This document shows, piece by piece, positions 34,453 to 62,754 of a stretch of 64,000 nt of DNA (position 1 is the first letter of the stretch; the number at the start of each line of letters is the position of its first letter). Under the pieces are notes generated by a model. It did no database searches and was not told the origin of the DNA. It worked only from the letters and a program-made list of their open reading frames with translations. Made by a program: the position numbers and the translations under genes. The stretch comes from an uncultured Bdellovibrionales bacterium (GTDB lineage: Bacteria; Bdellovibrionota_C; UBA2361; SZUA-149; CAZDIO01): positions 3,088 to 67,087 of the forward strand of contig CAZDIO010000125.1 in the NCBI GenBank assembly GCA_964505555.1, in the 5' to 3' direction.

Positions 34453-34591
34453 GATTGTGTTGCTTAGGAACTAGGTTGAGAGAACCTCCTCTTCAGAGCG
34501 CTGTATTATATACTTAATATTGACTCTTATAGTGTAGACACTCAACCTTTTTCCAAACTTGCATAGTGCTCTTTGGCTGGAACAACTTACA

Positions 34592-43166: not shown

Positions 43167-43176
43167 ACACCTCTTT

Positions 43177-43986: not shown

Positions 43987-43992
43987 AGATCG

Positions 43993-44847: not shown

Positions 44848-44855
44848 CCGTTTCT

Positions 44856-45812: not shown

Positions 45813-45845
45813 TTACTGAGGGAGATAGATAGGAGCGAGTTTTTT

Positions 45846-45934
45846 AATGAACACAGGGTTTCACAGAGATCCACAGAGTCAGAATATTCGATTTTATTCT
45901 TTACTCTGTGAAACTCCGTGAACTCTGTGTTCAA
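45846..45934. repeat. Palindromic dispersed repeat, copy C (REP/MITE-like, CACAGAG family)
   Basis: gaacacagggtttcacagag…ctctgtgaaactccgtgaactctgtgttc: imperfect long inverted arms around a loop gaatattcgattttattc. Intergenic between pstC and pstS. Confidence 0.7.
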
Positions 45935-45959
45935 AAAATCTTATCTTACTGCCGTTTGA

Positions 45960-46979
45960 CTACTGCTCTTTTTTTAACAACTCAGCAAGGGTCATTCCCA
46001 CATGGTTTCCACCCTGAGTAAAAACGGTGCCAATAATGGACTTATTAAACCTTCCCTCAGCGAGATTATAAACTTCGGAGGGAAGCTGCACGTAGCCTAC
46101 TTCATTTGATAATGTTGATACATTCTTCAAATAGAAGGAAACAAACTCCTTCACAGCAGGACGATCAAGTGCTTTCTTACTCACATAGATAAACAGTGGG
46201 CGAGATAATGGCTGATACAATCCCTTAACCACGTTTTCTTTTGTGGGTGATTGTGGACCTTTGCCATTAGCTTCTTTTTCATCATCAATTGCCAATGCCT
46301 TTAATTTGCCTTTATTCTCTTCATAGTATGCCATTCCAAAAAATCCGAGAGCATTTGGATCACTCGCAATTCCCTGAACAAGCACATTGTCATCCTCACT
46401 ACTGGTGAAGTCACCTCTACTAGAATGCTCTTTTCCCACCACAGCTTCTGTAAAGTAGTCGTACGTCCCGGAATCAACCCCTGCTCCAAAAAGAACAAGT
46501 GGTTTATTTGGCCAATCCGCTCGAATTTGATTCCACGTAGTAATCTTTCCCTGAGCTTCAGGTTCCCAGATCTTTTTTAGCTCGGCTACCGTGATTGAAT
46601 TCGCCCAGGTGTTGTCCTTACTGACGATTACCGAGAGCGCATCATAGGCAACAGGAAGCTCCACAAACTCTACCCCGTTATCCTTACAGAGTTGAAGTTC
46701 CGTTTCTTTTATTGGTCGTGAGGCATCAGAAATATCGGTCTCTCCTGCACAGAACTTTTTAAATCCACCCCCAGTTCCTGAGATACCCACGGTAATTTTG
46801 ATCTCTTTGTTTTTTGAACCAAACTCCTCTGCAACTGCTTCAGTAATTGGATACACAGTACTCGAGCCATCAACTCGGATCATATCTGTCCCCATGGTGG
46901 TGGGCGCAGCAGATACCGATTGTGAAAGGAGAATGCCCGTAAGGAATGCTACATACTTCAGATTGCCATCTTTTTTCAT
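45960..46979 (-). CDS. pstS: Phosphate-binding periplasmic protein PstS
   Basis: PBP fold ([16 protein letters not shown]…[11 protein letters not shown]). The likely start is [10 protein letters not shown]…, giving a signal peptide. The ORF-track start at 47045 is an upstream extension. Confidence 0.85.
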
Positions 46980-47126
46980 ATTCCCATGCCTTTTTCTTTC
47001 AACTGTCCTAAATAAATAATAACAATACGCTATTACTGCGCGCACAGTGCAGTAGTTTTGTTAGGGTATTATTAGGAGAATGCTAGAAGTTTTTCAAGTT
47101 CCGGAGAGAATGGCAAAAAACTGAGC

Positions 47127-48188
47127 TTATTTGATCTCCGGCAGGGGCAAATGAATTGAAAACGTACTGCCTTGTCCCATTTCACTCTTCACATCAACGT
47201 TTCCGTTATGAATACTTGCTACGTGCTTAACGATGGCTAAACCAAGACCAGTACCTCCCATCTTTCGACTCCGGGCCTTATCAACTCGATAGAATCTCTC
47301 AAAAATTCGTGCGAGGTGCTCATCAGAAATCCCCGGACCCCGATCTTGAACTTCAATGATAATCTCTTCTTTAGTGCGAATTCCTTTAATGGTAACGGTA
47401 GTGTTGTTCCCACTATATTTCACTGCATTATCAATAAGATTAATAACCGCTTGCTCAAGGAGTGATCGATCAACCACCACGTTCAATAGTGGGTCACATT
47501 CTACCCGCAACGTAATTGACTTTGCTGCAGCTCCACCCCGACAAACTTCAGAAGCGGCATTTAAAATATCACGCACCTTCTCTGTTTCAAGAACAAGAAA
47601 CTCCTGTTCAGATTCACTCTCTAACCGCGCCAGTGTCAATAAGTCTTCGACGATCGCATGTAAGCGATCTGCTTGCACCGACATGATCCGCAAAAACCGC
47701 CGAGCATCTTCTTTATTATCCATCGCTCCATCAAGGAGGGTTTCCACAAATCCCTTAATCGAAGTAATTGGGGTCTTAAGCTCGTGAGATACGTTTGCTA
47801 CAAAATCCCTTCTTACCTTCTCAAGAAGTTTGAGGCGCGTTACATCATTAACAATAATCAACATACCAAATAATTCTCCTTCCTGACCGCGAAGCGCGGT
47901 GCTCCGAAGGGTAAAATACTCCTCATCTCCACTGCGAAGTGTTATCTCTGCTCCAGACTCCACAGCAAGCGCCGAATCATTGGAAAAAAACCGCTTTAAT
48001 CCTTCATCTCTCACCACCTGATCTATTCGCTTTCCTAAAATGGCCTCATCATCAACATCAAGAAACTTTGAGGCAGCTTTATTCGTATGAACCACAAGAT
48101 ATTCTGCATCCAGAATTAATACCCCCTCGGTCATACTCGAAAGCATGGTCTCAAGTGAGAGTTCTTTTGCGCGGGGATCAAGTGTCAT
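47127..48188 (-). CDS. phoR: Phosphate regulon sensor kinase PhoR (soluble PAS-HK, no TM segment)
   Basis: PAS (EGVLILDAEYLVVHTNKAA), HisKA (VSHELKTPITSIKGF) and HATPase (GTGLGLAIVKHVASIHNG). No hydrophobic segments. Confidence 0.85.
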   Translation of the reverse strand: MTLDPRAKELSLETMLSSMTEGVLILDAEYLVVHTNKAASKFLDVDDEAILGKRIDQVVRDEGLKRFFSNDSALAVESGAEITLRSGDEEYFTLRSTALRGQEGELFGMLIIVNDVTRLKLLEKVRRDFVANVSHELKTPITSIKGFVETLLDGAMDNKEDARRFLRIMSVQADRLHAIVEDLLTLARLESESEQEFLVLETEKVRDILNAASEVCRGGAAAKSITLRVECDPLLNVVVDRSLLEQAVINLIDNAVKYSGNNTTVTIKGIRTKEEIIIEVQDRGPGISDEHLARIFERFYRVDKARSRKMGGTGLGLAIVKHVASIHNGNVDVKSEMGQGSTFSIHLPLPEIK

Positions 48189-48871
48189 TCTTTAAAGCGA
48201 TATCCTACACCACGAACGGTTTCAATATATTTTCCAACCGGTCCAAGCTTCTTTCTCAATCCCACAATCTGCACATCCACCGCACGATCGGTAACCGGAT
48301 AATCTTTTCCCTTAATAGCATCAACAATCTGATACCTTGTAAAAACCCATCCCGGATGCCTTGCAAGAAAATGAAGAATTTGAAACTCCGTTAAGGTTAA
48401 AGGGATCGGCTCCTCCTGAATTAATACCTCATGCCTTCCGGGATGAATCGTAATCTCATGCACCCGAAGCACCGCCTCACTATCAAGAGGCTCTGCTTGC
48501 CGACGCCGAATCACCGCTTTTACCCGAGCAATAAGGATTCTGGGACTAAAGGGTTTTGTAATATAGTCATCCGCTCCAAGTTCAAGTCCCGTAACAATAT
48601 CACTCTCTTCACCTTTGGCAGAAACCATCATGATCGGAATGTCCCGAGTCTCTTCGTCGTTTTTTAAAATACGACACACATCGAGACCATCGATCCCGGG
48701 TAGCATTAAATCAAGAACTATCAGATCCGGAATCTGCACCCGCGCTAAACGCAACCCCTCCTCTCCAGAGGTAACCCCAGAGACCCCAAACTGTTCCTTT
48801 GTAAGATTATAACGAACAAGTTCGAGGATATCCTCCTCATCTTCAATTACAAGAATGTTCTGTTGAGCCAT
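48185..48871 (-). CDS. phoB: Phosphate regulon response regulator PhoB (OmpR family)
   Basis: Receiver (ILVIEDEED…LIVLDLMLPG) and winged helix (GVGYRF). Overlaps phoR by 4 nt. Confidence 0.85.
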   Translation of the reverse strand: MAQQNILVIEDEEDILELVRYNLTKEQFGVSGVTSGEEGLRLARVQIPDLIVLDLMLPGIDGLDVCRILKNDEETRDIPIMMVSAKGEESDIVTGLELGADDYITKPFSPRILIARVKAVIRRRQAEPLDSEAVLRVHEITIHPGRHEVLIQEEPIPLTLTEFQILHFLARHPGWVFTRYQIVDAIKGKDYPVTDRAVDVQIVGLRKKLGPVGKYIETVRGVGYRFKE

Positions 48872-48975
48872 GAGGGTATCTGCGCAAATGAATGTTAGCG
48901 GCGTGTTTGGTCTCTGTTAAAAGTTCATAACACACCCCAGGCCACGGCCATAAGTTAAGGATCTGAAGAAAGATT

Positions 48976-49050
48976 TATAGGACCACAGAGTCACAGAGAA
49001 GATCAATAAAATCTTTTTTCTCTGTGCCTCTGCGTCTCTGTGGTTCTATA
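48976..49050. repeat. Palindromic dispersed repeat, copy A (short variant of copy B)
   Basis: tataggaccacagagtcacagagaagatcaataaaatcttttttctctgtgcctctgcgtctctgtggttctata. Terminal IR TATAGnACCACAGAG/CTCTGTGGTTCTATA. It shares the central agagaagatcaataaaatc with copy B. Confidence 0.75.
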
Positions 49051-49084
49051 AAAAATCCTTCCCTTAATGCCCGTAACCCCAGGG

Positions 49085-50527
49085 CTACTGTATAATATTA
49101 GCTCGTTTTAGTTGCAAACGCTTACGCAACCATACTTCAAGAGCCCGTGTGGCAAGCACATCATCTCGGTTATATTGAAGAATCTCCTCTTGGATTGCTT
49201 TTTGTTCCGTGAGAATCTCAGACTCAAGATATTTTAAATATCGAACAACAGACCACTGGGAACCAGATCCTTCATTTTCCCAAGAAAAGTTCACCAGACG
49301 CTTATCTTTGCAGATCTGCTTAAGACCATATCCTGTGGTTGGAAGAACAAGAGAGCGTTTTACAATTGAAAGAAGATCCACCAAGGCATCTTCTTCCTTC
49401 AAAAGAAACTTCACGATGGGATGACTCTCCATCGTGTAGCGCTGTGCATAAGCCCGAAGTTGCGCCTTTTCAAATGGCGAAAAGTGAATAAGACGCGGCT
49501 TTTCATAGTGCTTCTGGTAGTGCTCCACTGCCTGAAGAAAAGAAAGCCAACCTTGATAATCACCCTCTGGACCATCTTCACTCCATACATACTGATATTC
49601 TTTTCGGCTATACGGAGGAGGAAGCAATCCCCAGAGATAGACCTGCCCACCGTCTACTGAGGCAAAGGGGTTAAGTTCAACATCAAAGTGAATCCAGGTT
49701 CCCTCCGGCAAATCGGGAGACTCCAATTCGATCACCTCTCCTTGGAGAAAGCTTCGTGCTTGATGAATCACTCGTTGTCTCTTCTCTTGTGTCGTAAAGT
49801 ACGGCAGATCTGCCAGGTCCTCAGGAGTAGCTTCAGCAAGTTGTGAAATATTTTTAATTCCCCTTCCTTCTAGAGCACCTACATTTCGAACATCGATGCC
49901 ATAGATCAGAGTCAGCTCCCCTTGAGTATGAAATTCAGGAATACAGATCTCACTATAACCACACCCTTTACATTTGGAATGACTAAAATGTGTTTCTGGA
50001 GGGGTTTTTTGTGCAAGAATTTTTTGAAAATTTTCAAGAAAATTATCTCTTATCCCATTTGCTTCATCCCCAACCTCTTCAATGACTCCGGAACGAAGAT
50101 AACATCTTGCCGGGAGTTTACTTGAAAAGAGTAGCCGATAGAGCGCAAGTTGTAATCGAATCTCTGGATGACCAGAGAGTGAATCCGCGAGCTTTGCGTC
50201 GGCAACTATATACTCCCCAGTTTCATTACGAATCAGAAAATCAGGTTTCCCTATTAATTTTCGTTGCTCATCAATAATCACCGGCTGATAAATAACGGGA
50301 ACACCTTGCTTCATTAACTCTTGAGTGTGCGCTGGAGAGAGTGCGAGCGTAATCTCCGAGAATGAGTTCTTAATCCGTTCTTCATGTTCCATTCCCAACT
50401 TTGAAAGTAATTGCTCAAAGGGATCTTTTTCAACAAACAAATTGTCTGGGGGAAATTGATCGTACCAAAACTTGCGAACACACTCTCGCCAAGTCTTTGC
50501 AGTACCTACAGGAAGAAGAAAGCCCAT
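49085..50527 (-). CDS. TM0106-family RecB-like nuclease (N-terminal PD-(D/E)xK Cas4-like domain with a Cys cluster, plus a C-terminal RNase-H-like domain)
   Basis: GKPDFLI…ADAKLA (PD-D/ExK), CKGCGYSEIC (Fe-S/Zn Cys cluster). The C-terminal half has YGID…DV motifs of the predicted RNase H-like exonuclease fold. Confidence 0.6.
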   Translation of the reverse strand: MGFLLPVGTAKTWRECVRKFWYDQFPPDNLFVEKDPFEQLLSKLGMEHEERIKNSFSEITLALSPAHTQELMKQGVPVIYQPVIIDEQRKLIGKPDFLIRNETGEYIVADAKLADSLSGHPEIRLQLALYRLLFSSKLPARCYLRSGVIEEVGDEANGIRDNFLENFQKILAQKTPPETHFSHSKCKGCGYSEICIPEFHTQGELTLIYGIDVRNVGALEGRGIKNISQLAEATPEDLADLPYFTTQEKRQRVIHQARSFLQGEVIELESPDLPEGTWIHFDVELNPFASVDGGQVYLWGLLPPPYSRKEYQYVWSEDGPEGDYQGWLSFLQAVEHYQKHYEKPRLIHFSPFEKAQLRAYAQRYTMESHPIVKFLLKEEDALVDLLSIVKRSLVLPTTGYGLKQICKDKRLVNFSWENEGSGSQWSVVRYLKYLESEILTEQKAIQEEILQYNRDDVLATRALEVWLRKRLQLKRANIIQ

Positions 50528-50599
50528 GGTTGGATCTCTAACGAAATCTCAACACAATGAAAAGATTAAAGAGTAACGCGCATTGATAGAACGAGGAGC

Positions 50600-50854
50600 T
50601 TAGTTCGAGTTGACGTAATAATTACGAACGCTTCCTACCTCATAGCGCTCTGGTGCCGTGCGATGTTTTCCATAAACGCTTACATTTTTATACGCACTCG
50701 GACGAGAAAAAAGCTTTTCAATGATGTCTGGCTCTACCTGCGGAGACCCAAACAGTTGCGCTCCAAATATTCGTGCAAGCGAGAACAGTCCGCTTGTTTT
50801 TACTTTATACTGAAGGGAGAGATTTAACACATCTCCCTTATCCTGAGTTACCAT
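50600..50854 (-). CDS. Hypothetical small protein (84 aa)
   Basis: ORF only, no recognisable motif. Possibly a gene fragment. Confidence 0.25.
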   Translation of the reverse strand: MVTQDKGDVLNLSLQYKVKTSGLFSLARIFGAQLFGSPQVEPDIIEKLFSRPSAYKNVSVYGKHRTAPERYEVGSVRNYYVNSN

Positions 50855-51054
50855 GCCACTACCTCCACTTACCTTATTGACCGAACCGACCTTACACCCC
50901 CTTATCGGGAAAACCGGGATATTCGCTTCAGTTTTTCGTGATTTACTAGTTGTTTTAAGAGGTTATCAATGTCCGGAATATTGAAAATCTATCTTTTGAG
51001 GGGGATTGGGTCGTGAGGTAGAGCGCCTTGGTATTGGGCTACGTTAGGTTTATT

Positions 51055-51150
51055 TAACGCAGAGCACACGGAGCACACAGAGAGGAGAATTTATCCCTTT
51101 TCCCCTCTGTGTGCTCCGTGTGCTCTGCGTCTTCCTCTGTGTTAAAAACC
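51055..51150. repeat. Palindromic dispersed repeat, copy D
   Basis: Perfect 25-bp IR gcagagcacacggagcacacagagg / cctctgtgtgctccgtgtgctctgc around loop agaatttatcccttttcc. An outer IR ttaacGCAGAG/CTCTGTGttaa matches the termini of copy C. Confidence 0.75.
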
Positions 51151-51182
51151 TTATACTTATAAGCATTCAAGTCGAGACCACA

Positions 51183-52268
51183 ATGACATCAGCAGAAACA
51201 AGAACGCAGATCGTAAAAGATCTTCTTTCCTGGTACAAAAAAAACAAACGACCTCTTCCTTGGCGAGAGAACGCCAATCCGTACAAGATCTGGATCGCTG
51301 AAGTCATGCTTCAACAAACCCAGGTGAGTCGAGTTCTTCTTTACTACAACCGCTTTCTCAAGCGCTTTCCAAATCTCACCTCACTTTCAGAAGCTTCCTG
51401 GAGCTCCCTCCTTCCTTATTGGCGCGGACTTGGCTACTACAATCGAGCTCGAAATCTGCAGAAATCTGCAAAACTCATCAAGAAGCATTTTCAAGGGCGA
51501 ATTCCAAAAGAGCAAAAAACATTGCGCTCTCTTCCCGGAATCGGCGACTACACCTCAGCAGCCATCTGTTGTTTTGCTTTTGGAGAGCCTCTTCCTGCAC
51601 TTGATACAAACCTTAGGCGGGTGTTCTCACGACTCCTCGGCACTTCAGGTAAAACAATCTCTCAGAAATCTCACGTTCTCTTTCAGGAGCACCACAAACA
51701 TGCCCCCACGTTGAATCATGCTCTGATGGATTTAGGTGCTCTGCTCTGTAAGGGGAGCACTCCCCATTGTCATCAATGCCCCCTGAAAAACAACTGCTAT
51801 TTTTTTCAAAGTAAGACCTCTTCATTGCCATCCTCCGCATCAACGAAACCTCGAAAAAAACCCCCGCAGATTCGCGTTGGCATTGCTTGCATTCACCACG
51901 AAGGACGATACCTTATTGGAAAAACCAAACGGAACGCCAAAATATTATGGGAGTTTCCAGGAGGCAAATGTGAAAACGGGGAAAGCGTCCGTTCCTGCAT
52001 TAAACGAGAGGGGAGAGAAGAGTTAGGGGTTGAACTCGCCGTAAGGCCGCCTTTTCTTATCGTTACAAGACTCCTCGAGGGACAAAGAGTAGAGCTGAAT
52101 TTCTGCCGCGCGCAGATTCTTCGGGGAAGACCGCGAAATCTAGTTTATCAAACACTCCGCTGGATCCCTCCAAACCAGTTTCAAAACTACTCGTTCCCTA
52201 CTCCAAACAAAAAAGCTCTTCGTATTCTCCAATCGCTTCAACATAAAAACAAACACGTTTCACATTAA
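51183..52268 (+). CDS. mutY: A/G-specific adenine DNA glycosylase MutY with C-terminal NUDIX-like domain
   Basis: HhH-GPD region (PYKIWIAEVMLQQTQV…LPGIGDYTSAAI) and the 4Fe-4S loop CxxxxxxCxxCxxxxxC (CKGSTPHCHQCPLKNNC). Start chosen at MTSAETR. Confidence 0.8.
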   Translation: MTSAETRTQIVKDLLSWYKKNKRPLPWRENANPYKIWIAEVMLQQTQVSRVLLYYNRFLKRFPNLTSLSEASWSSLLPYWRGLGYYNRARNLQKSAKLIKKHFQGRIPKEQKTLRSLPGIGDYTSAAICCFAFGEPLPALDTNLRRVFSRLLGTSGKTISQKSHVLFQEHHKHAPTLNHALMDLGALLCKGSTPHCHQCPLKNNCYFFQSKTSSLPSSASTKPRKKPPQIRVGIACIHHEGRYLIGKTKRNAKILWEFPGGKCENGESVRSCIKREGREELGVELAVRPPFLIVTRLLEGQRVELNFCRAQILRGRPRNLVYQTLRWIPPNQFQNYSFPTPNKKALRILQSLQHKNKHVSH

Positions 52269-52960
52269 GAAATGCTTTTTCTCTCTTGCGCTTCTCGAGG
52301 ATAATATTCATCAAGCCAATGACGAAGCGAGATCCCCGTAGCACGATGATCTTCTACAAATCTTAAGATGAGCGTATCAAGGGTAGGATGACCTTGATAC
52401 AGAGCTTTTAACTTTCTTTCAAACTGAAAAAACCCGTAACGAGAAGAAAGCTGCTCAAGTGCCACACCGGGATCCACCCCTTCTTTTTCAATCAACCAGA
52501 GCGCAGCAGCAACTCCGGCGCGATGGGTACCGCTTGAACAATGAATCAAAACTGGAACCTCTGCCTGATCATAGACAGAGAGAAGAAGATCTATCTTCTC
52601 TCGTCTTGGAACACGGGAACTTCTCATCGGAAAATGTATATAGCGTGCTCCAGCCTCCTCTACCGCTAACTCCTCGCTCTCGCCTTTTTTTGTTTCATCG
52701 TCATCGTCAAGACGGAGATCAATAACTGTGCGAATGCGATTTGTAGCAACAATCGATTGGAGCTCTTGGGGAGACATCTGTCCCGCTCGAAAAAATCTCC
52801 CTTTCACTACTTCATGGAGATTATGATTAAAAACTGCTCTGGCTATGAAGCTTGTAATCGCTGTAGTTTCTGAAACAAGCTGTGGAAATAAAAGTGCCCC
52901 AAAGAGCACACAGCAAGTAACATTTACTGACATAATTCGAGTAAAACTTTTCCTCATCAA
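52265..52960 (-). CDS. Secreted protein-tyrosine/dual-specificity phosphatase family protein
   Basis: Signal peptide, and the CX5R P-loop VLIHCSSGTHRAGV. Confidence 0.65.
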   Translation of the reverse strand: MMRKSFTRIMSVNVTCCVLFGALLFPQLVSETTAITSFIARAVFNHNLHEVVKGRFFRAGQMSPQELQSIVATNRIRTVIDLRLDDDDETKKGESEELAVEEAGARYIHFPMRSSRVPRREKIDLLLSVYDQAEVPVLIHCSSGTHRAGVAAALWLIEKEGVDPGVALEQLSSRYGFFQFERKLKALYQGHPTLDTLILRFVEDHRATGISLRHWLDEYYPREAQERKSIS

Positions 52961-53049
52961 CGAAACGAAAACCCCTTAGCAATAATAGGTAAAGTGAACT
53001 GTCGATGGTGTGATCTCGCCCTCTTCTCTCAGATTTCGACGAACAGCTA

Positions 53050-54498: not shown

Positions 54499-54511
54499 CC
54501 TTCGTTACTTC

Positions 54512-56497
54512 TTATTTTTGTAAGTTCTTTGGCAATATAAGATCTTTGTAGCGGTGATAGAGATACGAGGCGAGGATCAATACCAGCCCAAGAACCATAA
54601 AAGAGATGATCCGAAAAGGGGTGCTGACATTTTCCATATCTACAAAAAACACCTTTGTAATCGTTAAGCCAAACAAGCCGATGGCACATTTTCGTATTGC
54701 CGATTCATTGGTTACAAACCCAATAACAATAGTCACAATTGAAAAAAGTGCCCAGAGAACAGAGAGGGCCGCAAACCGAGCTTGCGGTAAGTATTCCCGA
54801 AAAAACGCACTGACTTCAATGTTGAGTGCATAAAACAACAGTATCGCAAAAAGGGTAAAAAACGCCTTAGAAGAAAGAGTGACAAGCCCAGTACCTTTCT
54901 TGGCGTTTTTCCTTAAAAGAATTGCCGAAATATATACTGCTGCCAAGACTGTCCCCGTAGTAATCCATCTTTCAACAAGGAGGTAAGTAAACGGTGGGGC
55001 GGCTCCACCATGATAGAGATCACGATCAACAGAGAGATAAAACACCTCAGGATAATCATAGAAGATAAATCTCCCAATCGCTACGCCAAGGAGGGCCATC
55101 CCGCCCATGTAGAGACGTTTATTATACAAACGCAATGCAATCCAAACTAAAATCGTCGCTTGCATTGCCCAAAAAACAGTAATCCACTGTTTTGAAAAAA
55201 GTAGTGGTACCGTAATTATTAAAAAAAGAAGCGCCTGACCAAGAAGGATAACCAGTATCCCAGTATTTGTTTTATCTTTTCGATAGATCCACTGCGCCAT
55301 CCAGAGAAAAAATGCCGCATACGCTACACTGACGACACTAATTGCGGGGACACCAAAGAGTGGTTTAATCATCAGATAGGAATAGAGAAAGGTAAGAAAA
55401 GCATTTGGCACAGAGATGGAGAATCCTCCTATTGCCTCACGGGGACGCTTTGGAAAAAAGTAATAAAGAAAAGGAACAAAGGCATAGATTAGAAAAAAAA
55501 TGTTCAAAAATAGCATCGTCTGCCAGAACTTGGAGCCGTGATAATGGTTTGCATACCACGCAGCAAAGAGCAGACTGGTAAAGATAAATCCTAGATAGTT
55601 GAGTGAGCGCCAATTTTTATAAAATGCAATTCCCAACAATCCAAAATTGAGAATAACCATATAGGTCATGAGCGCAAGCTGATTATCCCGCCCCGTGCTC
55701 AGCAGCACAGGGGTGAGAAACCCTCCTATAAGTCCAAGTACTGCTGTTTGTTTACTGTCATAAATCACTGCAAGCGTGCCCGCTAGCGCAGTAATCATGA
55801 CCATGATCCCAAATGACACCCCTTGGTCAAAGAGATCATACATCTGATATGCCGCATAGGTTGAAAAATATAAGGTGGCGATACCTCCTCCCACCAAATT
55901 TAAACCAAAGGCCACAAAATCTTTTTTACGAAAACGCTCTCCAAGGACAAGAAGCACAATTCCTGTAAGATACGCCATGGAAACGCGCGCTGCAGGGCCG
56001 ATCCAGTTTTGATCAAAGGAATATTTCAGAAAATATCCAACCCCAAGAACCATGATAATGATTCCAGAAACAAGCAACCATTTCTGACCAAACTGGATCT
56101 CCGCTTCCTTATTGCTCTGAACCTGCTGTGGACCTTGCCTCACCGAAGGATGGGAGGGGTTCTTTTCTTGCTCAGCTACGAAGGGTGCTACGGGTTCCTT
56201 TGCTTGAGCTTCTTGTCGAATCTCTCGAGTGAATTTTTCGTTTTCCGGTTTTTCAGTCGTGGGGATCTGTTTTTCAAAAGAAGCTTGTTTGGGCTTAACG
56301 CTTTTTGCAACCATATCCTCAAGCGCTTGAAGGGAATTTTCCAAGGTCGAAAGCCGCGAGCCGATAGTTTGCTTTACCTGAAGAAGGTCGCTTCGGATCT
56401 TACTGACATAACTTAAGGCGCCAAGATCTGCCTGACACTGAGGACAGGTAAGGACCACCTCTTGAAGAACCGTTGTCTCGCAGTGAGGGCATTTCAT
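54512..56497 (-). CDS. DUF2339-like polytopic membrane protein with an N-terminal zinc-ribbon
   Basis: MKCPHCE…CPQCQ zinc ribbon, a coiled-coil/Pro-rich linker, then about 18 TMs. Start placed at MKCPHCE. Confidence 0.5.
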   Translation of the reverse strand: MKCPHCETTVLQEVVLTCPQCQADLGALSYVSKIRSDLLQVKQTIGSRLSTLENSLQALEDMVAKSVKPKQASFEKQIPTTEKPENEKFTREIRQEAQAKEPVAPFVAEQEKNPSHPSVRQGPQQVQSNKEAEIQFGQKWLLVSGIIIMVLGVGYFLKYSFDQNWIGPAARVSMAYLTGIVLLVLGERFRKKDFVAFGLNLVGGGIATLYFSTYAAYQMYDLFDQGVSFGIMVMITALAGTLAVIYDSKQTAVLGLIGGFLTPVLLSTGRDNQLALMTYMVILNFGLLGIAFYKNWRSLNYLGFIFTSLLFAAWYANHYHGSKFWQTMLFLNIFFLIYAFVPFLYYFFPKRPREAIGGFSISVPNAFLTFLYSYLMIKPLFGVPAISVVSVAYAAFFLWMAQWIYRKDKTNTGILVILLGQALLFLIITVPLLFSKQWITVFWAMQATILVWIALRLYNKRLYMGGMALLGVAIGRFIFYDYPEVFYLSVDRDLYHGGAAPPFTYLLVERWITTGTVLAAVYISAILLRKNAKKGTGLVTLSSKAFFTLFAILLFYALNIEVSAFFREYLPQARFAALSVLWALFSIVTIVIGFVTNESAIRKCAIGLFGLTITKVFFVDMENVSTPFRIISFMVLGLVLILASYLYHRYKDLILPKNLQK

Positions 56498-56606
56498 AAT
56501 CGAGCTCCCAATATGGTAATCATTATGGAATAGGATGCTTCGATGCAAAGAAAAAACGTTGGAAGGAGAAAAATCGGGGGCTATGCTATTATCTGCGCTT
56601 TTTTCA

Positions 56607-57884
56607 TCATAAAATCATGGCCGCCTGACTGAGTGTTTCAAAAAGCTGGGGAACATGAATTTGATGATCTTTACTAGAGAGATAATCGTTAAAAATATGC
56701 TCCGCCGGTGGGAGATAAAATTCACCGTTAGGCTTTTTTACTGTGGTATCTTTTAGACGATACACGTAGTGCCCACAGGTATAGCAGGAATACTTCATGA
56801 AGTGGTAACAGATACACATCTTTTCCGTTACTGGAAGTTTTCGTCCCTTTTCATCAACTCCGGTCGCTGCATACGCATCTACGTAAGCACATTTTCCATC
56901 GCGATCGAGCATATACCCAAGCGCCTCACAGTTTGGTCGAATATTTGAAGTGAGACACGGACTAAAAGACAACATTCTCATCGCATATCCAGCTGGGGAG
57001 ATCATATTGACGATAACATTCTTTGGCTCCGCACGAAGATACACCTGTTTTACATTATCAGGTAACCCACACTCTTGAGAGATCGTAAATCGCGTTGCAA
57101 CTTGCACAGCGGATGCTCCCATCTCAAGAAATTGCGCTGCATCAGTTCCTGTAAAAATTCCTCCTGCGGGGATTACCGGAATTTTTAAATTCTCTTCCTG
57201 GATAAAATCAAGTATCTCCTTAACGATCGAGTGCAAGCTGTATTGCTCCCAATCAAGTCCAAATCCAAGATGCCCTCCCGCGAGAGGTCCCTCAACAATG
57301 ATATAATCTGGACGGCGATCGCATTTTGCGCCTGCACGAAGGAAAAGCTTTAACGCTCGAAGCGATGAGACAATGATGCCAATGTTTACATCTCGAAATC
57401 GAGGATGGTCAGCAATTAAGGAAAGTGATCCTAGATGGAGCCCGGCAGATAATGTCACACCATCAATTCCACCATCAAGTGCCGCACGCAGCCGCGCACG
57501 AAGGGTTTCTTTTGGCGCCCCCATTAAAAGCTTCTCCATCACGTTAACAAAAACCGCACCATCCCCTCGCTTTGCGGTCATGGTGGATTCAACGTGTTTG
57601 AGAGTTGCTTGGTAGAGATCCTGAGGATCCCACTTCACCTGAGTCTTATCAGTTGAGTCTACATTATCTTCGTATTTTTTTTGTTTGAGATTTTGATACC
57701 GTGTGCCAAACTTTTTATCAGACACCCAAGGAGACATCGCGTCAGAAATGTGTCCAATTCCACCGAGTTTCGCGATGGCTAACGCAAGATCGGAGGTGGA
57801 GATATCAACGCCCATTCCGCCCACAACGAGCGGTACATAGGTCTGGCCCCGTAGGCTAAGTGCGTAATCATCAAGTTTTGACAT
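56607..57884 (-). CDS. NMO/FabK-family FMN-dependent oxidoreductase (nitronate monooxygenase-like TIM barrel) with a Cys-rich C-terminal extension
   Basis: VVGGMGVDIS…LALAIAKLGGIGHIS is typical of the NPD/NMO family. The C-terminus has CICYHF…CYTCGH. Confidence 0.55.
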   Translation of the reverse strand: MSKLDDYALSLRGQTYVPLVVGGMGVDISTSDLALAIAKLGGIGHISDAMSPWVSDKKFGTRYQNLKQKKYEDNVDSTDKTQVKWDPQDLYQATLKHVESTMTAKRGDGAVFVNVMEKLLMGAPKETLRARLRAALDGGIDGVTLSAGLHLGSLSLIADHPRFRDVNIGIIVSSLRALKLFLRAGAKCDRRPDYIIVEGPLAGGHLGFGLDWEQYSLHSIVKEILDFIQEENLKIPVIPAGGIFTGTDAAQFLEMGASAVQVATRFTISQECGLPDNVKQVYLRAEPKNVIVNMISPAGYAMRMLSFSPCLTSNIRPNCEALGYMLDRDGKCAYVDAYAATGVDEKGRKLPVTEKMCICYHFMKYSCYTCGHYVYRLKDTTVKKPNGEFYLPPAEHIFNDYLSSKDHQIHVPQLFETLSQAAMIL

Positions 57885-58215
57885 AGGTTACTTAAACCAT
57901 ATAGCATATAATGAGACCTCCTTCATTTCCTACATGATTGGAGTCATATACAAAAATGAACTTGTCCAGACTACAGTGTCATATCTTTAAGGCGCTGCGC
58001 TGACAAGTCCCAGATAAGGAGATCTATCGGTAATTGCGTGATTTAGAGCGATAAACAGCTGGTATGAAACACTTAAACGCGAATTTCAGATCGATACTCA
58101 CTGGCTACTTTCTTATCGTAATCGCAGAATCAGAGGGATCAAACCTCCTTACGACACTAGGAGAAGCTTACACAAAAGTATACAGTGTTTATAAATTACT
58201 GACTGGAGATGAGAC

Positions 58216-59076
58216 ATGATTAGGAGCATTCTTACCCCATTTGATGGGTCTTCGTCGGCAGAAGCCGCCTTAAACATTGGCTGTAGTGTCGCAGGGATCA
58301 CCGGCGGTTACCTTAAAGCGATTTATATCGAAGATCAGCGGCGTCTCATGCACTACGACCTTTCAGCCTCAGTAGCGAGCGCTGTGGGTATCCAACCAGT
58401 TTTCCCGGTCCCTCTTCCTCCTGATAAAATGCTAGAAATTGAAAGTAAGTTTGACCTCGAATATCAAAAGTTACTTGCGTTTTTTGAAGAGCAACTTCGT
58501 GAGGCTCACATTCGAGGAGACTTTATCCGCCGACGAGGAATGCCGGTGGAGGTCATCCTCGAGGCTTCTCGCGAAGTAGATTTCGTCGTGATGGGAAATC
58601 ACGGCAAACATACCGGTGTTGAATATATAGAAAATGGCTTTACTACCAATGCCCTCTTGCAAGAAACCACTCGGCCGGTGTTGGTCGTCCCAGCAGATCC
58701 TCAAGGTGAATCCTCTCTCGTCATTGCTTACGATGGAAGCCCGGCCGCTGAACGAACATTACGAGTTGCGGCAGAATTTGCGGAGCTTACTGAAATGGAG
58801 CGCATCCATTTATTTACCGTGGAGACCCATAAAGAACGAGCAGAGGAGATTTTAGCCCCTGCCCGAGAGTATCTCTCCATCTACGATGTTGAAGTCCTTG
58901 CTGAGTCACGCGGCGGAAAGACCGCAGAGGAAATTTTGCGTTATACAAGTGAAGTCGGCGCAAGCGTCCTTGCGCTTGGGGCTTTTGGAAAAACAAGTTT
59001 TGCAAGCAAACTCTTTGGAAGCACGACAAGTGCGATTCTTAAAGATACCGATCGGGCGGTTCTTCTCTCCTCTTAA
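58216..59076 (+). CDS. Tandem universal stress protein (2x UspA domain)
   Basis: Two USP-like halves, each ending in a G-x2-G-x9-GS-like ATP-binding region (VMGNHGKH…; LGAFGKTSFASKLFGSTT). Confidence 0.75.
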   Translation: MIRSILTPFDGSSSAEAALNIGCSVAGITGGYLKAIYIEDQRRLMHYDLSASVASAVGIQPVFPVPLPPDKMLEIESKFDLEYQKLLAFFEEQLREAHIRGDFIRRRGMPVEVILEASREVDFVVMGNHGKHTGVEYIENGFTTNALLQETTRPVLVVPADPQGESSLVIAYDGSPAAERTLRVAAEFAELTEMERIHLFTVETHKERAEEILAPAREYLSIYDVEVLAESRGGKTAEEILRYTSEVGASVLALGAFGKTSFASKLFGSTTSAILKDTDRAVLLSS

Positions 59077-59406
59077 AAACAGAGTAACGCTTCGTAGGAG
59101 AACACCCTAAGGACGGTTCGAAGAAGCGAAAGCTCTACTGTCCGTAGTTTTCCCTATAGCGAAGAGCTCTTTATTTGATGACCACTGCGCTTCAGAGAGG
59201 CCATAGAGGTCTAATTACTGGCTTTTTTCTTCACTCCATAAACCGAATCTTTCTCTGAAAGCTCCTCCCACCCAGGGAGAATTGACGTGAATCGATCTTC
59301 CTAGTTTTCGCTCTAAATAAGAGCATGAAATTTGCCTTTCGGGGCTGAGATGTTTATAGTTTTTACTTAATTTCGATTAGTCTGCGCTGCATTTTAGGAA
59401 GGTACT

Positions 59407-62400
59407 GTGGATGATCAAACTCCTCCAGCCCTTATCAAGAGAGCGGAAGAGATTCGTCTAAAATTTGAAATTAGAGACACCTCGCTGATCTCTGCTCTCC
59501 GCCAGATCTCTTTTATTGGAGAGAGTACAAAAAAAGTAACTTCTGTTTCACAGAAAACACAAACAACTGAAGTTATATTTGGTAATTTTGTCCCAAATAA
59601 TTCTTTTTTAACTTTTAGCGGTGTTATTCACAATCGTTTTCGAGTTAATTTTCGTGTTCATGCTGAAACAAGAACATACCGAGAGATTATTTCATTTCTC
59701 TATGCGCAGTGCGCTTCTTCCTTTGTTCGTTCCTCATTAAAAAACGCCTCTGCTGCAGATAAAGAATTAATCCTTTCTTCATTACGAAACGAGCAGCATC
59801 AACTTGATGGAGAATCACCCGCACGTGACCGCAAATCCCCGATTGCTGTTTATCCCGAAGATTTTCAAGTAATCGATGATGATCCTTTCGATCTCGTACT
59901 CCGGGAACAAGAGTTTGCCGCAATACGGAAAAGAAAAAGCTCTCGAACAACTCAGCAAGGCAACGTTTCCCCACGATCAATCTTAAGAAATAGACGATTT
60001 CGAGTTTTTGACCGCAGCTCAACTGAATCAGCAATTGTTCCAGCCACGATTATTCTCTCCCTTGAGAAAGCTCCAACTTCAGTCAAACTCAAATCTGCCG
60101 GAAGAAGTCTCCGCAGTTCAACTTCACTTGAGCAAGACTTTGCTCGAGCAGAAAATTTCCGTTTCCTCTGCACCCCTGACATAAAGATAAAAACAGATTG
60201 CGTTGAAGCTTCTGTTGAGGTGGAAACAAGCGCAGAAACACTGGAAGCATTAGAATGCTACCTCCGTTGGGGAAGATACGGCGATAGTGATTCGCTTTGG
60301 GTTGATGAGCAGTTGTTTCCCGAAGATTTTACGCGAACAAATCAAAATATCTATCGGGTAACAAAAACTATCTCCCCTCATCACGCCGGTCAATACGGAG
60401 TGACCTTTTATGTTCGCTATGCAAATCACGGGAAAAAATACTGGCTGGGACGTCCCTACATTGACGACGGTCAATTTTACTTAGAAAACGGATTTCCCAA
60501 TTCTTCTCCACAAAATCAGCTCATCGAACAAATCAGTCATTTGAGTTTTCAAACTGAGCTTATTCAAAGCATGCTCAGTTTCGAAAGTTTCGTAAAAACC
60601 ATAGAGGGACTAAGCAAAGAAAAACTCTGTCGTGGTCTTGGGCGAGCACTCTTCGAAATCACCAGAGATGACGAAGGGTTGAGAGCTCTCCTCTCTGAGT
60701 ATTATGAGCTCGCATTACGCCACCTCAGTGAGGAGCACGAAAGTAGTGAAAAGCGTCTGTATCAGCTCGTTACCACCACTCTCCAAAATATCGGAATTGG
60801 CGAGATCGTTTTTATTGCTCCAGAAGGACCGCACGCAAATGCCGGTGGTCTTGGTCAGGTGATTATCGGCTTAATGCAGTCACTCAACCGAACGGGCATT
60901 TCTACAACTTTGATCACTCCGCTCTATGAACAATCCCAAGGAAACAAACATACCTCAGCTGCAAAGCTTCTTCGCGAAGGTTTAACGATCAATAACCGCA
61001 AAGTTCCTCTTGGCCTCATAGGAAATGTCGAAGTAGTTTTTGGCCCAACTCGTTTTTCGGGAACTTCCTTAATCAAAGAACACGCTCAAACTATTGCCGT
61101 TCAGGTGTATCTTGCTGAATATGAAAACGTAAAGATCTTTTTTCTTCGTCATAAGCGGTATGCATCAAAGCTCTACAGCGCGGGATCATCTGAGGAGCTC
61201 TTACGAAGGGCGATCTTTCTTTCTCGGGGAGCGCTCGAGTTACTTTCAAATCCCCGATTTGGCGTTCGTCCACATATCTTGATCACCAACGATTGGTTGA
61301 CTGGCCTTGTTCCTGTATTTTTGAAAACCGATCCGAAATACTCCTTCGGGCAACAGCTCCATGGTGTTGAAACGGCCCATATTCTCCATAATTGCGGGAG
61401 AGCCTATCAAGGTCGATTGTTTGTAAACCAATATGGAGAGGATCTGTGGCCGATTCTTGGGCTTAGTGATGAGCACTTCTTTGGGTTATGCGATCCACAT
61501 GATCGTAACTATTTCAATCTTACCGCAGGAGCAATCTTCCATGTCGAGCGAGCTCTCGTCGCCGTCAGCAAGCCTTACGCAGAGGAGCTTTTTACGAAAG
61601 AAGGTGGAGAAGGGCTCCATGAGATGTTACAAAAAAAATCAAAAGTACTTTTTGGGATCAGTAACGGGGTCGACATGCAATCGCTTCACCATGTTTTATG
61701 GGAGCTTGGTGAAAGTGCACGGTCAGTTTTTGAACAAAACACAAACACTCCGGAACACTATTCACAAGAACGCTTGCTGCTCAGGCTCCCCAGCTACAAA
61801 GAAGCTCTCAAACGAAACGTGCAGAGAAAAAGTGGTTTAGCAGAAAATCAGGAGGCCGTTCTTATCTCGCTCGTAGGAAGACTTGCGGAACAGAAAGGAA
61901 TTGGTTTACTCACACAAAAAATCGAGAAGGAGAACTGTACGGTTCTTGAGCTGATTCTGCGCACACACCGCCAAACACAGCTCATCATTGCTGGCCCCCC
62001 AAGTGAAGGAGATCCGGCTTTTCTGCGCTTGGTAACCACTCTTCGCGATCTGGCAAAACGCTATCCAAATCGCATTCAGGGGATCTTTGATTTTGTCACC
62101 CATGGGGAAGCTTTAGAGATCACGGGAGCAAGTGATCTCTTTCTCATGCCTTCTCGTTATGAACCCGGTGGAATTACACAACTTGAGGCACTGGCTACCG
62201 GCACCCTGGTGGTAGCCAGAAATGTCGGGGGGATTTCTGCAACGCTTGTTGATTATGGCAAAAATACCGACTTAGGAAATGCCTTCTTGTTTGAGGAATA
62301 TACTCCAGAGGCATTTCTCCGTGCCATCGTACGGGGAATCGAGGTGGCGGGAGACAGAAAAATGAGAGATCATTTAATGCTCAAAGCTGCCGTATCTGAA

Positions 62401-62565
62401 AACGACTGGACCCATCGGGCGCCAAAATACCTCAGCCTCTTACAACATGTTGCCGGAGTTTTTTCCAAAGGAGATCTCTATCCTCACCTTTCTTCACGTC
62501 GGACACTCCTTAGCAGCATTCGACCCGATCAGGAGAAGAGAATTATCACCACTCCTCTCCCCTAG
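59407..62565 (+). CDS. Glycogen/starch-synthase-like GT5 glycosyltransferase with a ~460-aa N-terminal extension of unknown function
   Basis: Residues ~470-1000 align with GlgA (IVFIAPEGPHANAGGLGQV…; the C-terminal GT1 half has PSRYEPGGITQLEAL). The canonical K-T-G-G-L motif reads N-A-G-G-L. Confidence 0.65.
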   Translation: MDDQTPPALIKRAEEIRLKFEIRDTSLISALRQISFIGESTKKVTSVSQKTQTTEVIFGNFVPNNSFLTFSGVIHNRFRVNFRVHAETRTYREIISFLYAQCASSFVRSSLKNASAADKELILSSLRNEQHQLDGESPARDRKSPIAVYPEDFQVIDDDPFDLVLREQEFAAIRKRKSSRTTQQGNVSPRSILRNRRFRVFDRSSTESAIVPATIILSLEKAPTSVKLKSAGRSLRSSTSLEQDFARAENFRFLCTPDIKIKTDCVEASVEVETSAETLEALECYLRWGRYGDSDSLWVDEQLFPEDFTRTNQNIYRVTKTISPHHAGQYGVTFYVRYANHGKKYWLGRPYIDDGQFYLENGFPNSSPQNQLIEQISHLSFQTELIQSMLSFESFVKTIEGLSKEKLCRGLGRALFEITRDDEGLRALLSEYYELALRHLSEEHESSEKRLYQLVTTTLQNIGIGEIVFIAPEGPHANAGGLGQVIIGLMQSLNRTGISTTLITPLYEQSQGNKHTSAAKLLREGLTINNRKVPLGLIGNVEVVFGPTRFSGTSLIKEHAQTIAVQVYLAEYENVKIFFLRHKRYASKLYSAGSSEELLRRAIFLSRGALELLSNPRFGVRPHILITNDWLTGLVPVFLKTDPKYSFGQQLHGVETAHILHNCGRAYQGRLFVNQYGEDLWPILGLSDEHFFGLCDPHDRNYFNLTAGAIFHVERALVAVSKPYAEELFTKEGGEGLHEMLQKKSKVLFGISNGVDMQSLHHVLWELGESARSVFEQNTNTPEHYSQERLLLRLPSYKEALKRNVQRKSGLAENQEAVLISLVGRLAEQKGIGLLTQKIEKENCTVLELILRTHRQTQLIIAGPPSEGDPAFLRLVTTLRDLAKRYPNRIQGIFDFVTHGEALEITGASDLFLMPSRYEPGGITQLEALATGTLVVARNVGGISATLVDYGKNTDLGNAFLFEEYTPEAFLRAIVRGIEVAGDRKMRDHLMLKAAVSENDWTHRAPKYLSLLQHVAGVFSKGDLYPHLSSRRTLLSSIRPDQEKRIITTPLP

Positions 62566-62617
62566 TTCTCAACTAAAACTGTGAAAACTTCTCACGGTCA
62601 TTACGTTAAGGATTTTT

Positions 62618-62716
62618 TATAGAACCACAGAGGCGCAGAGACATAGAGACATAGAGACATAGAGAAGATCAATAAAATCCCTTTCCTCTGTGTCTCTGCG
62701 CCTCTGTGGTTCTATA
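62618..62716. repeat. Palindromic dispersed repeat, copy B (long variant with 3x CATAGAGA microsatellite)
   Basis: tatagaaccacagaggcgcagagaca (tagagaca x3) gaagatcaataaaatc cctttcc tctgtgtctctgcgcctctgtggttctata. The 26-bp terminal IR is perfect. Confidence 0.8.
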
Positions 62717-62754
62717 AATCTTCTTTCAGATCCGTCACTTCATGGCCGTGAGAA

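Follow-up and report, generated by a model that had tools for sequence, protein, structure and literature searches.

Four hairpin-forming palindromic repeats with tandem CAGAG-type arms in a Bdellovibrionales contig, and the recurrence of their arm motif across bacterial phyla and phage contigs

The DNA stretch analyzed here (the window, 64,000 nucleotides of a contig from an uncultured Bdellovibrionales bacterium) carries a group of similar palindromes in its intergenic DNA, which raises the question whether these are mobile repeats of the REPIN or MITE type, transcription terminators or elements of another kind. Sequence inspection and RNA folding confirmed four non-coding hairpins (copies A to D, Table 1) where a preliminary description had placed them, all inside 17 kb. 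Folded as + strand RNA, they reached -43.0 (A), -36.3 (B), -62.8 (C), and -61.1 kcal/mol (D), with z-scores of -8.8, -7.8, -13.6, and -12.1, respectively. None of 200 shuffles folded as stably and the - strand values were similar (overall range -36 to -65 kcal/mol, z -6 to -14), so that the predicted ability of each copy to fold was confirmed. The heptamer CACAGAG is enriched: it occurs 27 times in the window compared with 6.7 +/- 2.4 times in shuffles (maximum 13), and 14 of these 27 occurrences fall inside the hairpins. Tandem pairs of the degenerate unit CRCRRRG are even confined to the four hairpins within the window (14 overlapping matches vs. 0.24 in shuffles).

The arms consist of tandemly arranged units of 8-10 nt, each composed of the core C-R-C-R-G-A-G and 1-3 spacer bases. 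Tandem Repeats Finder (TRF) reported periods of 8-9 on both arms and the conserved core measures 7 nt, i.e., a head-to-tail unit of ~7 nt in intergenic DNA. On whichever strand the elements are read, the purine-rich array (AAC-C...CAGAG) comes first and its complement second, and this inverted motif pair forms the hairpin upon a stem base of AAC/GTT. The terminal inverted repeats have the form AAC(N)CAGAG...CTCTG(N)GTT as described before. In contrast, the element size of 75-100 bp given earlier is too small, as the palindromes of all four copies extend outward past the hairpins.

Table 1. Coordinates of the four hairpins, their arms, outer palindromes and associated motifs in the window.
Feature	Position	Strand	Context and basis
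Copy A hairpin	45848..45933	.	pstS|pstC gap of the - strand pst operon; sequence, fold
Copy A purine arm CACAGGGTTTCACAGAGATCCACAGAG	45852-45878		followed by the loop
Copy A pyrimidine arm CTCTGTGAAACTCCGTGAACTCTGTG	45904-45929		
Copy A outer imperfect palindrome	45827..45948	.	fold
Flank motif AAAAAATCTTATCTTACTGCCGT by copy A	45934-45956		included in the outer palindrome of copy A; common to the other copies; flank comparison
Copy B hairpin	48974..49052	.	between nuclease stop codon and phoB start codon, both - strand
Copy B ends TATAGGACCACAGAG...CTCTGTGGTTCTATA, loop AAGATCAATAAAATC			
Copy B outer imperfect palindrome (ACGGcCAT..TTAAGGAT.. / ..ATCCTT..ATGcCCGT)	48944..49073	.	homologous to copy D flanks, opposite orientation
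Copy C hairpin, 9-nt units (ACGCAGAG CACACGGAG CACACAGAG)	51057..51130	.	divergent gap
Copy C outer pairs (AGGTTT..TTTAAC / GTTAAA..AAACCT)	51046..51151	.	one extra unpaired unit CTTCCTCTGTG
Copy D hairpin	62616..62718	.	between convergent glgA-like and ICMT-like genes
Perfect 3.6-copy 8-nt microsatellite AGAGACAT (ACATAGAG units)	62637..62665	+	TRF; left arm, copy D only
Copy D outer palindrome	62589..62754	.	13-bp outer stem TTCTCACGGTCAT / ATGGCCGTGAGAA

Comparison of the copies revealed B and D to be clear homologues over about 130-165 nt. They share 82% identity over 85 nt in direct orientation, while their flanks are 85-88% identical in inverted orientation. Within the loop, 17 of 21 bases match directly vs. 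8 of 21 inverted; the palindrome center is inverted relative to the flanks. The common ends TATAGRACCACAGAG and loop AGAGAAGATCAATAAAATC had been assigned to the first and second copies, but it is the second and the fourth (B and D, listed there from 48976 and 62618) that share them. The arms of copy B hold two units on the left and three on the right, one unit being missing on the left. Copy D (arms of 33 nt, 97% complementary) carries three extra ACATAGAG units on one arm and hosts the 8-nt microsatellite previously reported for one copy. Copy C has arms of 33 nt with 94% complementarity and a loop of 8 nt. With copies B and D, A and C have the architecture and one flank motif in common, whereas internal sequence is conserved only between B and D. 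Taken together, the assignment as homologous, dispersed, non-coding palindromic repeats was borne out, and elsewhere related genomes differ by insertion/deletion of related modules. Unambiguous extended homology is nevertheless found only for the pair B and D, and the architecture of A and C could reflect convergence on the same motif.

With respect to genomic placement, all four copies had been described as lying between convergent or divergent genes. This applies to C, the sole copy with divergent neighbors (a small ORF and mutY, whose likely ATG at 51184 follows ~54 nt further on), and to D, the sole copy with convergent ones, whose outer stem directly adjoins the ICMT-like gene at its TAA stop codon (62755-62757). 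It does not apply to A and B (listed there from 45846 and 48976), which separate co-directional genes. The pstS|pstC gap of E. coli K-12 contains a REP-type hairpin, three other pst operons show unrelated strong stem-loops in this gap, and canonical terminators are found at the same junction in other pst operons. The occurrence of REP-type or unrelated hairpins in these gaps supports a positional function.

Extension of the analysis beyond the window showed that the arm motif, written as TT-AACC-(RCAGAGnn)n, belongs to a much wider family. It was found in at least 120 IMG/VR contig stretches compared with four for a scrambled control, in records of Cyanobacteria, Nostocales among them, Bacteroides, Gemmatirosa (16 and 22 places per replicon), and Pseudoalteromonas, isolate genomes included, as well as in Nitrospirota, Acidobacteriota, Omnitrophota, and a Bdellovibrionota relative. 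A genome search with the 17-mer terminus gave 26 matches, 8-10 of which continue with further CRGAG units or the complementary arm; these derive from Cyanobacteria, Nitrospirota, Desulfobulbaceae, Alphaproteobacteria, Thermoanaerobaculia, and Omnitrophota. Altogether, at least eight bacterial phyla and many uncultured phage contigs share this arm sequence, with a patchy distribution over unrelated phyla. This contrasts with REP, BIME, and MITEs, which are normally lineage-specific with their spread tied to a known transposase, and such an abundance far outside the lineage is not what a MITE or REPIN reading predicts. The motif was absent from E. coli and the family is absent from Rfam. Within the window, only two tRNAs and none of the four hairpins reached the Rfam gathering score; at E<=10 the hairpins matched only plant/animal miRNA-precursor models, far below threshold. 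Full-text literature searches retrieved no paper quoting or naming the motif.

The arm sequence is conserved across phyla, in contrast to the flanks and to the loops, which are unrelated between most copies. Single arms far outnumber hairpins (92 vs. 27), and in the clusters the purine arm comes first in 23 cases and is reversed in two. Of 90 non-redundant arms, 43 lie no more than 33 nt downstream of a stop codon on the same strand, compared with 8.2 for random positions. Single arms frequently terminate in a purine run resembling AGAGGA, close ahead of the next start codon. The unit period among 97 non-redundant arms outside the window was 8 in 86 cases and 9 in 122. Related phage contigs furthermore contain a ~40-nt module at some sites while lacking it at otherwise identical ones. 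Three such filled/empty sites were found, one of them with a 5-nt AAAAG direct repeat, which surrounds a single arm and not a hairpin. Either insertion of the module or its exact loss between short direct repeats would produce such differences. If the family is real in this breadth, the combination of fixed polarity, a strong bias toward positions immediately behind a stop codon, and presence or absence between close relatives would define a widespread cis element whose function and propagation call for a mechanism. Cultured carriers, e.g., Bacteroides finegoldii, Pseudoalteromonas shioyasakiensis, and Nostoc, make the motif directly testable.

We consider it somewhat more probable than its negation that copies A to D are small non-coding, non-autonomous palindromic repeats, constituting the hairpin form of this wider family and acting as mRNA stem-loops. 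Once transcribed, they would fold into extremely stable stem-loops lacking a U-tract, as the folding energies indicate. Enterobacterial REP/BIME hairpins are known to punctuate transcripts and to uncouple upstream from downstream expression; judging from their position, the elements of the window may likewise punctuate transcripts, by blocking 3'-to-5' decay or as a processing/partial-termination point, and uncouple the expression of the upstream gene from that of the downstream genes. Copy A would separate pstS from pstCAB-phoU, probably explaining the likely partition of the pst operon in the window, copy B would separate the nuclease gene from phoBR, and copy D would act on both genes of the convergent pair. 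Whole units have been gained or lost in the arms, presumably by replication slippage. The palindrome center occurs in either orientation relative to its flanks, for which arm-to-arm recombination or template switching could be responsible; the same process would also keep the arms nearly perfect. Two observations speak against this stem-loop reading: a simple structural role accounts for conserved pairing but not for an arm sequence that is itself conserved across phyla, and copy C is located in a divergent promoter region and not at a gene 3' end.

Two further readings address the cross-phylum conservation, both of which we regard as tentative. There is some chance that the AACC-(RCAGAGnn)n arrays are undescribed pan-bacterial, phage-borne mobile modules of ~40 nt that insert, or are copied, right after stop codons, with the hairpins of the window as their fold-back form. 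The arrays would be constant across phyla because a universal cellular component recognizes or synthesizes them, candidates being the translation/termination/reinitiation machinery or a template-switch/fold-back reaction of a polymerase, the latter of which would in addition account for the order of arms in the hairpins, purine arm first. Rather doubtful, in our view, is that the arrays are sequence-specific targets of an RNA- or DNA-binding component with wide conservation, e.g., the ribosome or a termination/reinitiation factor, an S1/Csp/CsrA-type protein, or a polymerase, with the hairpin as a secondary, masked form of the site. Conservation of the arms but not of loops and flanks, the excess of single arms, their sense-strand location directly after stop codons, and their purine-rich ends before start codons would all fit, and a precedent exists in the role proposed for TAACTGA heptamer repeats (PMC4679880). 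However, all four window copies are fully paired, which would hide the sites, the unit length ranges from 8 to 10 nt between copies, the likeness to the 16S rRNA 3' end is within chance (estimate 3-15%), and the partners listed are candidates. To our knowledge, no protein is known to associate with CAGAG arms.

The remaining explanations fare less well. Factor-independent ("I-shaped", U-tract-less) terminators or attenuators that happen to be built from repeats appear unlikely, even though the stems are very stable, D lies between convergent genes, A and B follow pstS and the nuclease gene, respectively, at their 3' ends, and other pst operons have canonical terminators at the corresponding junction. 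Intrinsic (Rho-independent) terminators share the stable stem-loop at gene 3' ends, but the window hairpins have stems of at least 30 bp and no T-tract follows any copy; on both strands T-runs precede and A-runs follow. Moreover, C precedes the genes on both of its sides, and complete termination in the pstS|pstC gap would shut off pstCAB-phoU. A terminator scan of the window reported none of the four hairpins; the terminator-like character ascribed to them earlier is thus not supported. Mobilization as REPINs by a RAYT (Y1 transposase, IS200/IS605 family) encoded elsewhere in the genome is improbable. Like the REP/BIME and REPIN elements of Enterobacteria and Pseudomonas, the copies are intergenic imperfect palindromes made of two inverted copies of a short motif, occur several times, and give stable mRNA stem-loops between co-transcribed genes such as pstS|pstC. 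In contrast to these, their arms are tandem heptad arrays and not single 20-25 nt REPs, the motif spans phyla and phage contigs whereas REP families are species- or lineage-specific, and no GTAG or CGTC tag marks any end. The ends read (T)AAC/GAAC...GTT(A)/GTTC, the lone CGTC being internal to a copy B arm, and no RAYT/Y1 transposase was seen among the window genes scanned. Equally improbable is a classical MITE origin from a DDE-transposase IS with subterminal CAGAG repeats in its terminal inverted repeats. Such an origin would agree with the terminal inverted repeats, the length of 80-170 nt, the internal sequence shared by B and D, and the TTAA-CC ends of many phage copies, which are reminiscent of piggyBac/IS1380; bacterial MITEs (Correia/NEMIS, RUP, ERIC, Nezha) are also non-coding intergenic palindromes of this size able to alter mRNA stability. 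The bases outside AAC/GTT, however, are inverted and not direct in all four copies, so that no target-site duplication exists, and the palindrome runs into non-conserved flanks. In addition, the arms consist of internal repeats, most copies have unrelated loops, internal sequence is common only to B and D, and single arms are the commonest form. Neither a parental IS nor a full-length/autonomous element with the same ends was found in the window or at the ~150 loci inspected. The REPIN and MITE identities put forward initially are not supported. Coincidental local hairpins or assembly artefacts, suggested by the clustering of all copies within a short section of a metagenome-assembled contig, are already effectively refuted by the enrichment far beyond shuffles, the presence of the motif in isolate genomes, and the 100% identity of the copy A region in two independent Logan assemblies of other sequencing runs. 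As an integron attC site (RYYYAAC...GTTRRRY), only the left end of copy C (ATTTAAC) would fit, right ends such as GTTAAAA and GTTCTAT do not, and the window contains neither an integrase nor a cassette array.

Among known systems, cyanobacterial STRR are reportedly intergenic tandem heptamer repeats. The TAACTGA repeats of Beggiatoaceae, Cyanobacteria, and Bacteroidetes are of the same type (PMC4679880), as are long simple sequence repeats (Mrazek et al. 2007, as summarised in PMC4679880). With these, CAGAG arrays share their short length and location at gene boundaries, with two to six copies of a 7-nt core, a patchy cross-phylum spread including Cyanobacteria and Bacteroidetes, and changes of copy number by slippage; neither group has an established transfer mechanism or binding factor. 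In contrast, CAGAG units carry spacer bases, raising the period to 8-10, the arrays start with AACC and follow stop codons while the others are located just before start codons, and each of the hairpins in the window joins such an array to its inverted counterpart, without exception. The small dispersed repeats (SDR) of Nostoc are modules of <50 nt, often hairpin-associated and present or absent at conserved sites, and are not known to encode a mobility protein. The CAGAG modules resemble them in very small size and in presence/absence at otherwise conserved sites. The sequences appear to differ, and the CAGAG family extends beyond cyanobacteria, to which SDR are reportedly restricted. A comparable difference was observed for the window itself: in a syntenic relative, an element is situated downstream of gcvP, where the corresponding gap in the window measures just 29 nt, which points to element turnover.

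All four palindromic stretches of the preliminary description (copies A, B, C, and D) exist as described and each folds as a long stem-loop, with z-scores ranging from -6.3 to -13.6 and 0 of 200 dinucleotide shuffles folding equally well. Each arm is a tandem array of short CRCAGAG-like units; in every copy, Tandem Repeats Finder returned periods of 8-9 for either arm. The arms of copies D and C, both 33 nt long, are 97% and 94% complementary, respectively; the left arm of copy B is one unit short, and copy D carries three extra ACATAGAG units in one arm only. Every copy follows the order AAC, purine-rich (N)CRCAGAG array, loop, CTCTGYG array, GTT, which is identical on both strands because the structure is palindromic. 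The window contains 27 instances of the heptamer CACAGAG (6.7 +/- 2.4 in shuffles), 14 of these inside copies A-D, and tandem CRCRRRG pairs are found within the 64 kb in these copies only (14 overlapping matches vs 0.24 in shuffles). Of the intergenic gaps in the window, 28 measure 60 nt or more, and four of these hold an element, all between 45.8 and 62.7 kb.

Location of the hairpins, related modules, and other features (window positions unless another record is named)
Feature	Location	Strand	Details
Copy A	45840-45940		fold + strand -43.0 kcal/mol, - strand -48.3 kcal/mol
Copy B	48970-49056		fold + strand -36.3 kcal/mol, - strand -34.5 kcal/mol
Copy C	51050-51150		fold + strand -62.8 kcal/mol, - strand -65.4 kcal/mol
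Copy D	62612-62722		fold + strand -61.1 kcal/mol, - strand -63.1 kcal/mol
Pseudoalteromonas shioyasakiensis megaplasmid CP076682.1	L175:2360-3300		four head-to-tail ~240 bp units, one hairpin each
Filled/empty site 1			42-nt module, bounded by 5-nt AAAAG direct repeat
Filled/empty site 2			~40 nt module, directly after TAA stop codon
Filled/empty site 3			~44 nt module
Two divergent tRNA genes	19401-19471; 19647-19718	-; +	in 577-nt gap after gltX
Two tandem paralogous small ORFs	34270-34452; 34559-34768	+	60 aa and ~50-69 aa
glgA-like gene	59407-62565	+	1052 aa
90-nt inverted similarity, 72%	6900-6989; 48548-48637		kdpE-like vs phoB response-regulator genes

The hairpins and their ends are as first reported, whereas the palindromes reach farther outward than noted. 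In copy D, an outer stem of 13 bp (TTCTCACGGTCAT/ATGGCCGTGAGAA) extends the structure to a 166-nt palindrome (62589-62754) that directly borders the ICMT-like gene at its stop codon; the outer pairs are weaker in copies A, B, and C. The common ends and loop had been assigned to the first two copies, but the true pair is formed by those at 48976 and 62618 (B and D), which are homologous across the full extended palindrome (direct identity of 82% over 85 nt). Their flanks are 85-88% identical in inverted orientation (repeats D2, I2, and I3), whereas the loop AAGATCAATAAAATC, as read from the sequences, matches at 17 of 21 bases in direct and at 8 of 21 in inverted orientation; the center of the palindrome thus appears flipped relative to the flanks in one copy. 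Alternatively, a 13-nt flank segment may have been lost on opposite sides in the two copies. Reading of the sequences also revealed a flank motif, AAAAA(A)TC(C)TT..CTTA.TG.CCGT, common to all four copies on one side and present on both sides in B and D; in copies A, B, and D it follows the upstream gene's stop codon and precedes the hairpin.

The proposed location between convergent or divergent genes holds for copies C (divergent) and D (convergent), but A and B separate co-directional genes, namely pstS followed by pstC and the nuclease gene followed by phoB, all four on the minus strand. The elements are dispersed palindromic repeats, yet the labels REPIN, MITE with target-site duplication, and terminator were not borne out. 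No T-tract follows any copy and a terminator scan reports none of A-D; on both strands, T-runs precede each element and A-runs follow it. The window genes scanned include none for a transposase, RAYT, or integrase, and Rfam, at gathering as well as permissive thresholds, contained no family corresponding to the hairpins. They are best filed as a variant form of small intergenic palindromic/tandem-heptamer repeats.

The main new result is that the motif is not confined to one lineage. A search for the 17-mer terminus TTTATAGRACCACAGAG in a collection representing each GTDB species by a single genome gave 26 matches, one each in unrelated organisms, of which eight run on into a correctly spaced additional CRGAG unit (~0.4% expected by chance) and two further ones into another unit or the complementary arm. 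Carriers of extended matches are Nostoc, Paraprochloron, Caldora, a Desulfobulbaceae member, an alphaproteobacterium, Thermodesulfovibrionales, Thermoanaerobaculia, and Omnitrophota. In IMG/VR, the pattern AACCRCAGAG-N3-4-CAGAG-N3-4-CAGAG was present in at least 120 stretches compared with four for a scrambled-pentamer control. A 51-nt consensus queried against PLSDB by BLAST matched Bacteroides (15 records), Gemmatirosa megaplasmids (16 and 22 places), Nostoc, Anabaena, Calothrix, Sphaerospermopsis, Gloeocapsa, and Pseudoalteromonas; in Bacteroides finegoldii, typical hairpins lie between convergent genes. The motif was absent from 5,426 complete E. coli genomes, copy D had no match in a BLAST search of a cultured-phage collection, and the 22 matches of the B/D loop 19-mer in metagenome contigs were all chance matches in coding sequence. 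The window elements belong to a cross-phylum motif family of which no published description was found; a full-text literature search for the arm strings retrieved no relevant paper. On the Pseudoalteromonas megaplasmid, the motif forms a satellite-like array near a dptF gene, each unit consisting of ~105 nt of conserved spacer and a CAGAG-arm hairpin with a ~70 nt loop.

Properties of the wider family were derived from the IMG/VR loci among the matches listed, after removal of redundancy. Three units make up 87 of 97 arms, with a unit period of 8 nt (86 cases) or 9 nt (122 cases). T predominates at both positions preceding AACC, and purine-rich sequence follows the array. Single arms are commonest (92), compared with 27 hairpins and four reversed arrangements, and in 23 clusters of paired arrays the purine arm leads, while in two it follows. 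Nearly half of the arms (43/90) follow a long same-strand ORF, no more than 33 nt beyond its stop codon, as compared with 8.2 (maximum 17) for random positions; 16 begin at the TAA itself. Units are alike within an arm and unlike between arms (CACAGAG, CGCAGAG, CACGGAG, and others), a homogeneity that points to slippage or concerted evolution. In some IMG/VR hairpins (L119, L135, and L059), all units of one arm share the same transition relative to perfect complementarity, CACAGAG facing CTTTGTG, CTTCGTG, or TTCCGTG, showing that units are homogenized within but not between arms; one of these hairpins pairs only as G-U on one strand. Related phage contigs furnished three filled/empty sites, and these differences may represent insertions or precise deletions.

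Further arrays accompany the motif in IMG/VR. The 13 kb contig L066 (IMGVR_UViG_3300024287_000138) holds six AACCGCAGAG arrays, all on one strand and several adjoining the stop codon of an opposite-strand gene, with CACGGAT and CACGGAG arrays as neighbors. CAGAG arrays often stand beside tandem arrays of CTTAAAA(C), CACGAAG, or CACGAAC/T (e.g., L037, L065, L070, and L032). Such mixed neighborhoods suggest that AACC-headed arrays form a broader class whose units are interchangeable.

Within the source lineage, 100% matches to GltX and the nuclease of the window were found on one NCBI contig only, the next-best GltX matches being at most 69% identical and the named relatives being Bdellovibrionota/Oligoflexia MAGs (58-64%). 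An exact-protein search with PhoB and the nuclease matched no contig, and one with PstS led to two Logan contigs identical to the window without additional sequence. These assemblies, made from other sequencing runs (SRR13076506 and SRR13076517), match window positions 42050-48571 and 45480-47860 at 100% identity, so copy A is no assembly artifact; the window organism is present in both public runs. The relative L028 (GltX 67% identical) shares the gcvPHT-folD-ald-minDC-gltX order and carries, downstream of gcvP, a related element with a CTCTG array ~70 nt before a CAGAG array, whereas the window has a 29-nt gap only at this site. Elements thus turn over within the lineage. A second relative, L031 (GltX 65%), encodes a group II intron-type reverse transcriptase (RVT_1 + GIIM, 12545-13801) just downstream of gltX; its 21-kb locus contains no CAGAG element.

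The best clue to the function of the window copies is their position. Copy A separates pstS from pstC-pstA-pstB-phoU inside one operon. The same junction of E. coli K-12 holds a hairpin (GCCGGATGCGGCG...), which we take to be a REP, and three further pst operons have unrelated, strong stem-loops there, two with a U-tract and one without. Stem-loops of differing sequence at this junction indicate a recurrent solution. According to work on the malE-malF REP, such a stem-loop reportedly either attenuates read-through or shields the message of the upstream binding protein. On this analogy, copy B would set off the nuclease transcript from phoBR and copy D would serve both genes of its convergent pair. 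The poorest fit to this model is copy C, which lies in a divergent region with the likely mutY start codon ~54 nt downstream. A structural role alone does not explain the same arm sequence in distant phyla, the purine arm standing almost always first, or single arms hugging stop codons. This conservation, polarity, and placement suggest that some widely shared machinery recognizes or synthesizes the CAGAG arrays. Among published repeats, the closest parallel to them is provided by the TAACTGA heptamer repeats common to Beggiatoaceae, Cyanobacteria, and Bacteroidetes, which likewise have no known transfer mechanism or binding factor (PMC4679880).

Several other readings were considered. The vicinity of copies to pstS and phoB suggested a Pho box, but the arm period is 8-10 bp as opposed to the 11 bp of the PhoB box, and copies C and D lie away from pho genes; this reading was therefore rejected. 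Resemblances to the DnaA box (TTATCCACA), to parS (TGTTTCACGTGAAACA), and to the downstream box are partial matches only, fail for the CGCAGAG variant, and were judged coincidental. The likeness of CTCTGCGGTT..ATCCTT to the 16S rRNA 3' end (the 3' strand of helix 45 plus the anti-Shine-Dalgarno sequence) has an estimated chance probability of 3-15% and was regarded as within chance. An upstream AAGGA is weakly enriched in the wider family (6 vs ~1.5 of 95) and is thus a local-family trait of the window copies. Finally, an origin of the hairpins from two independent post-stop arms of convergent genes was rejected as a general model, since convergent ORFs flank only 1 of 16 intergenic phage hairpins.

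Among the remaining features of the window, the two tRNAs after gltX are the only Rfam matches. The tandem paralogous small ORFs account for the 141-nt direct repeat D1; they share ...GSIE(L/I)IVIGLLAAL(I/V)IVLAIPLLKDTGSKTAS..., a sequence resembling an Flp-type pilin. The similarity between the kdpE-like and phoB genes is ordinary paralogy, unrelated to the hairpins. The glgA-like protein has starch-synthase domains from ~residue 467, preceded by a long N-terminal region without Pfam match.
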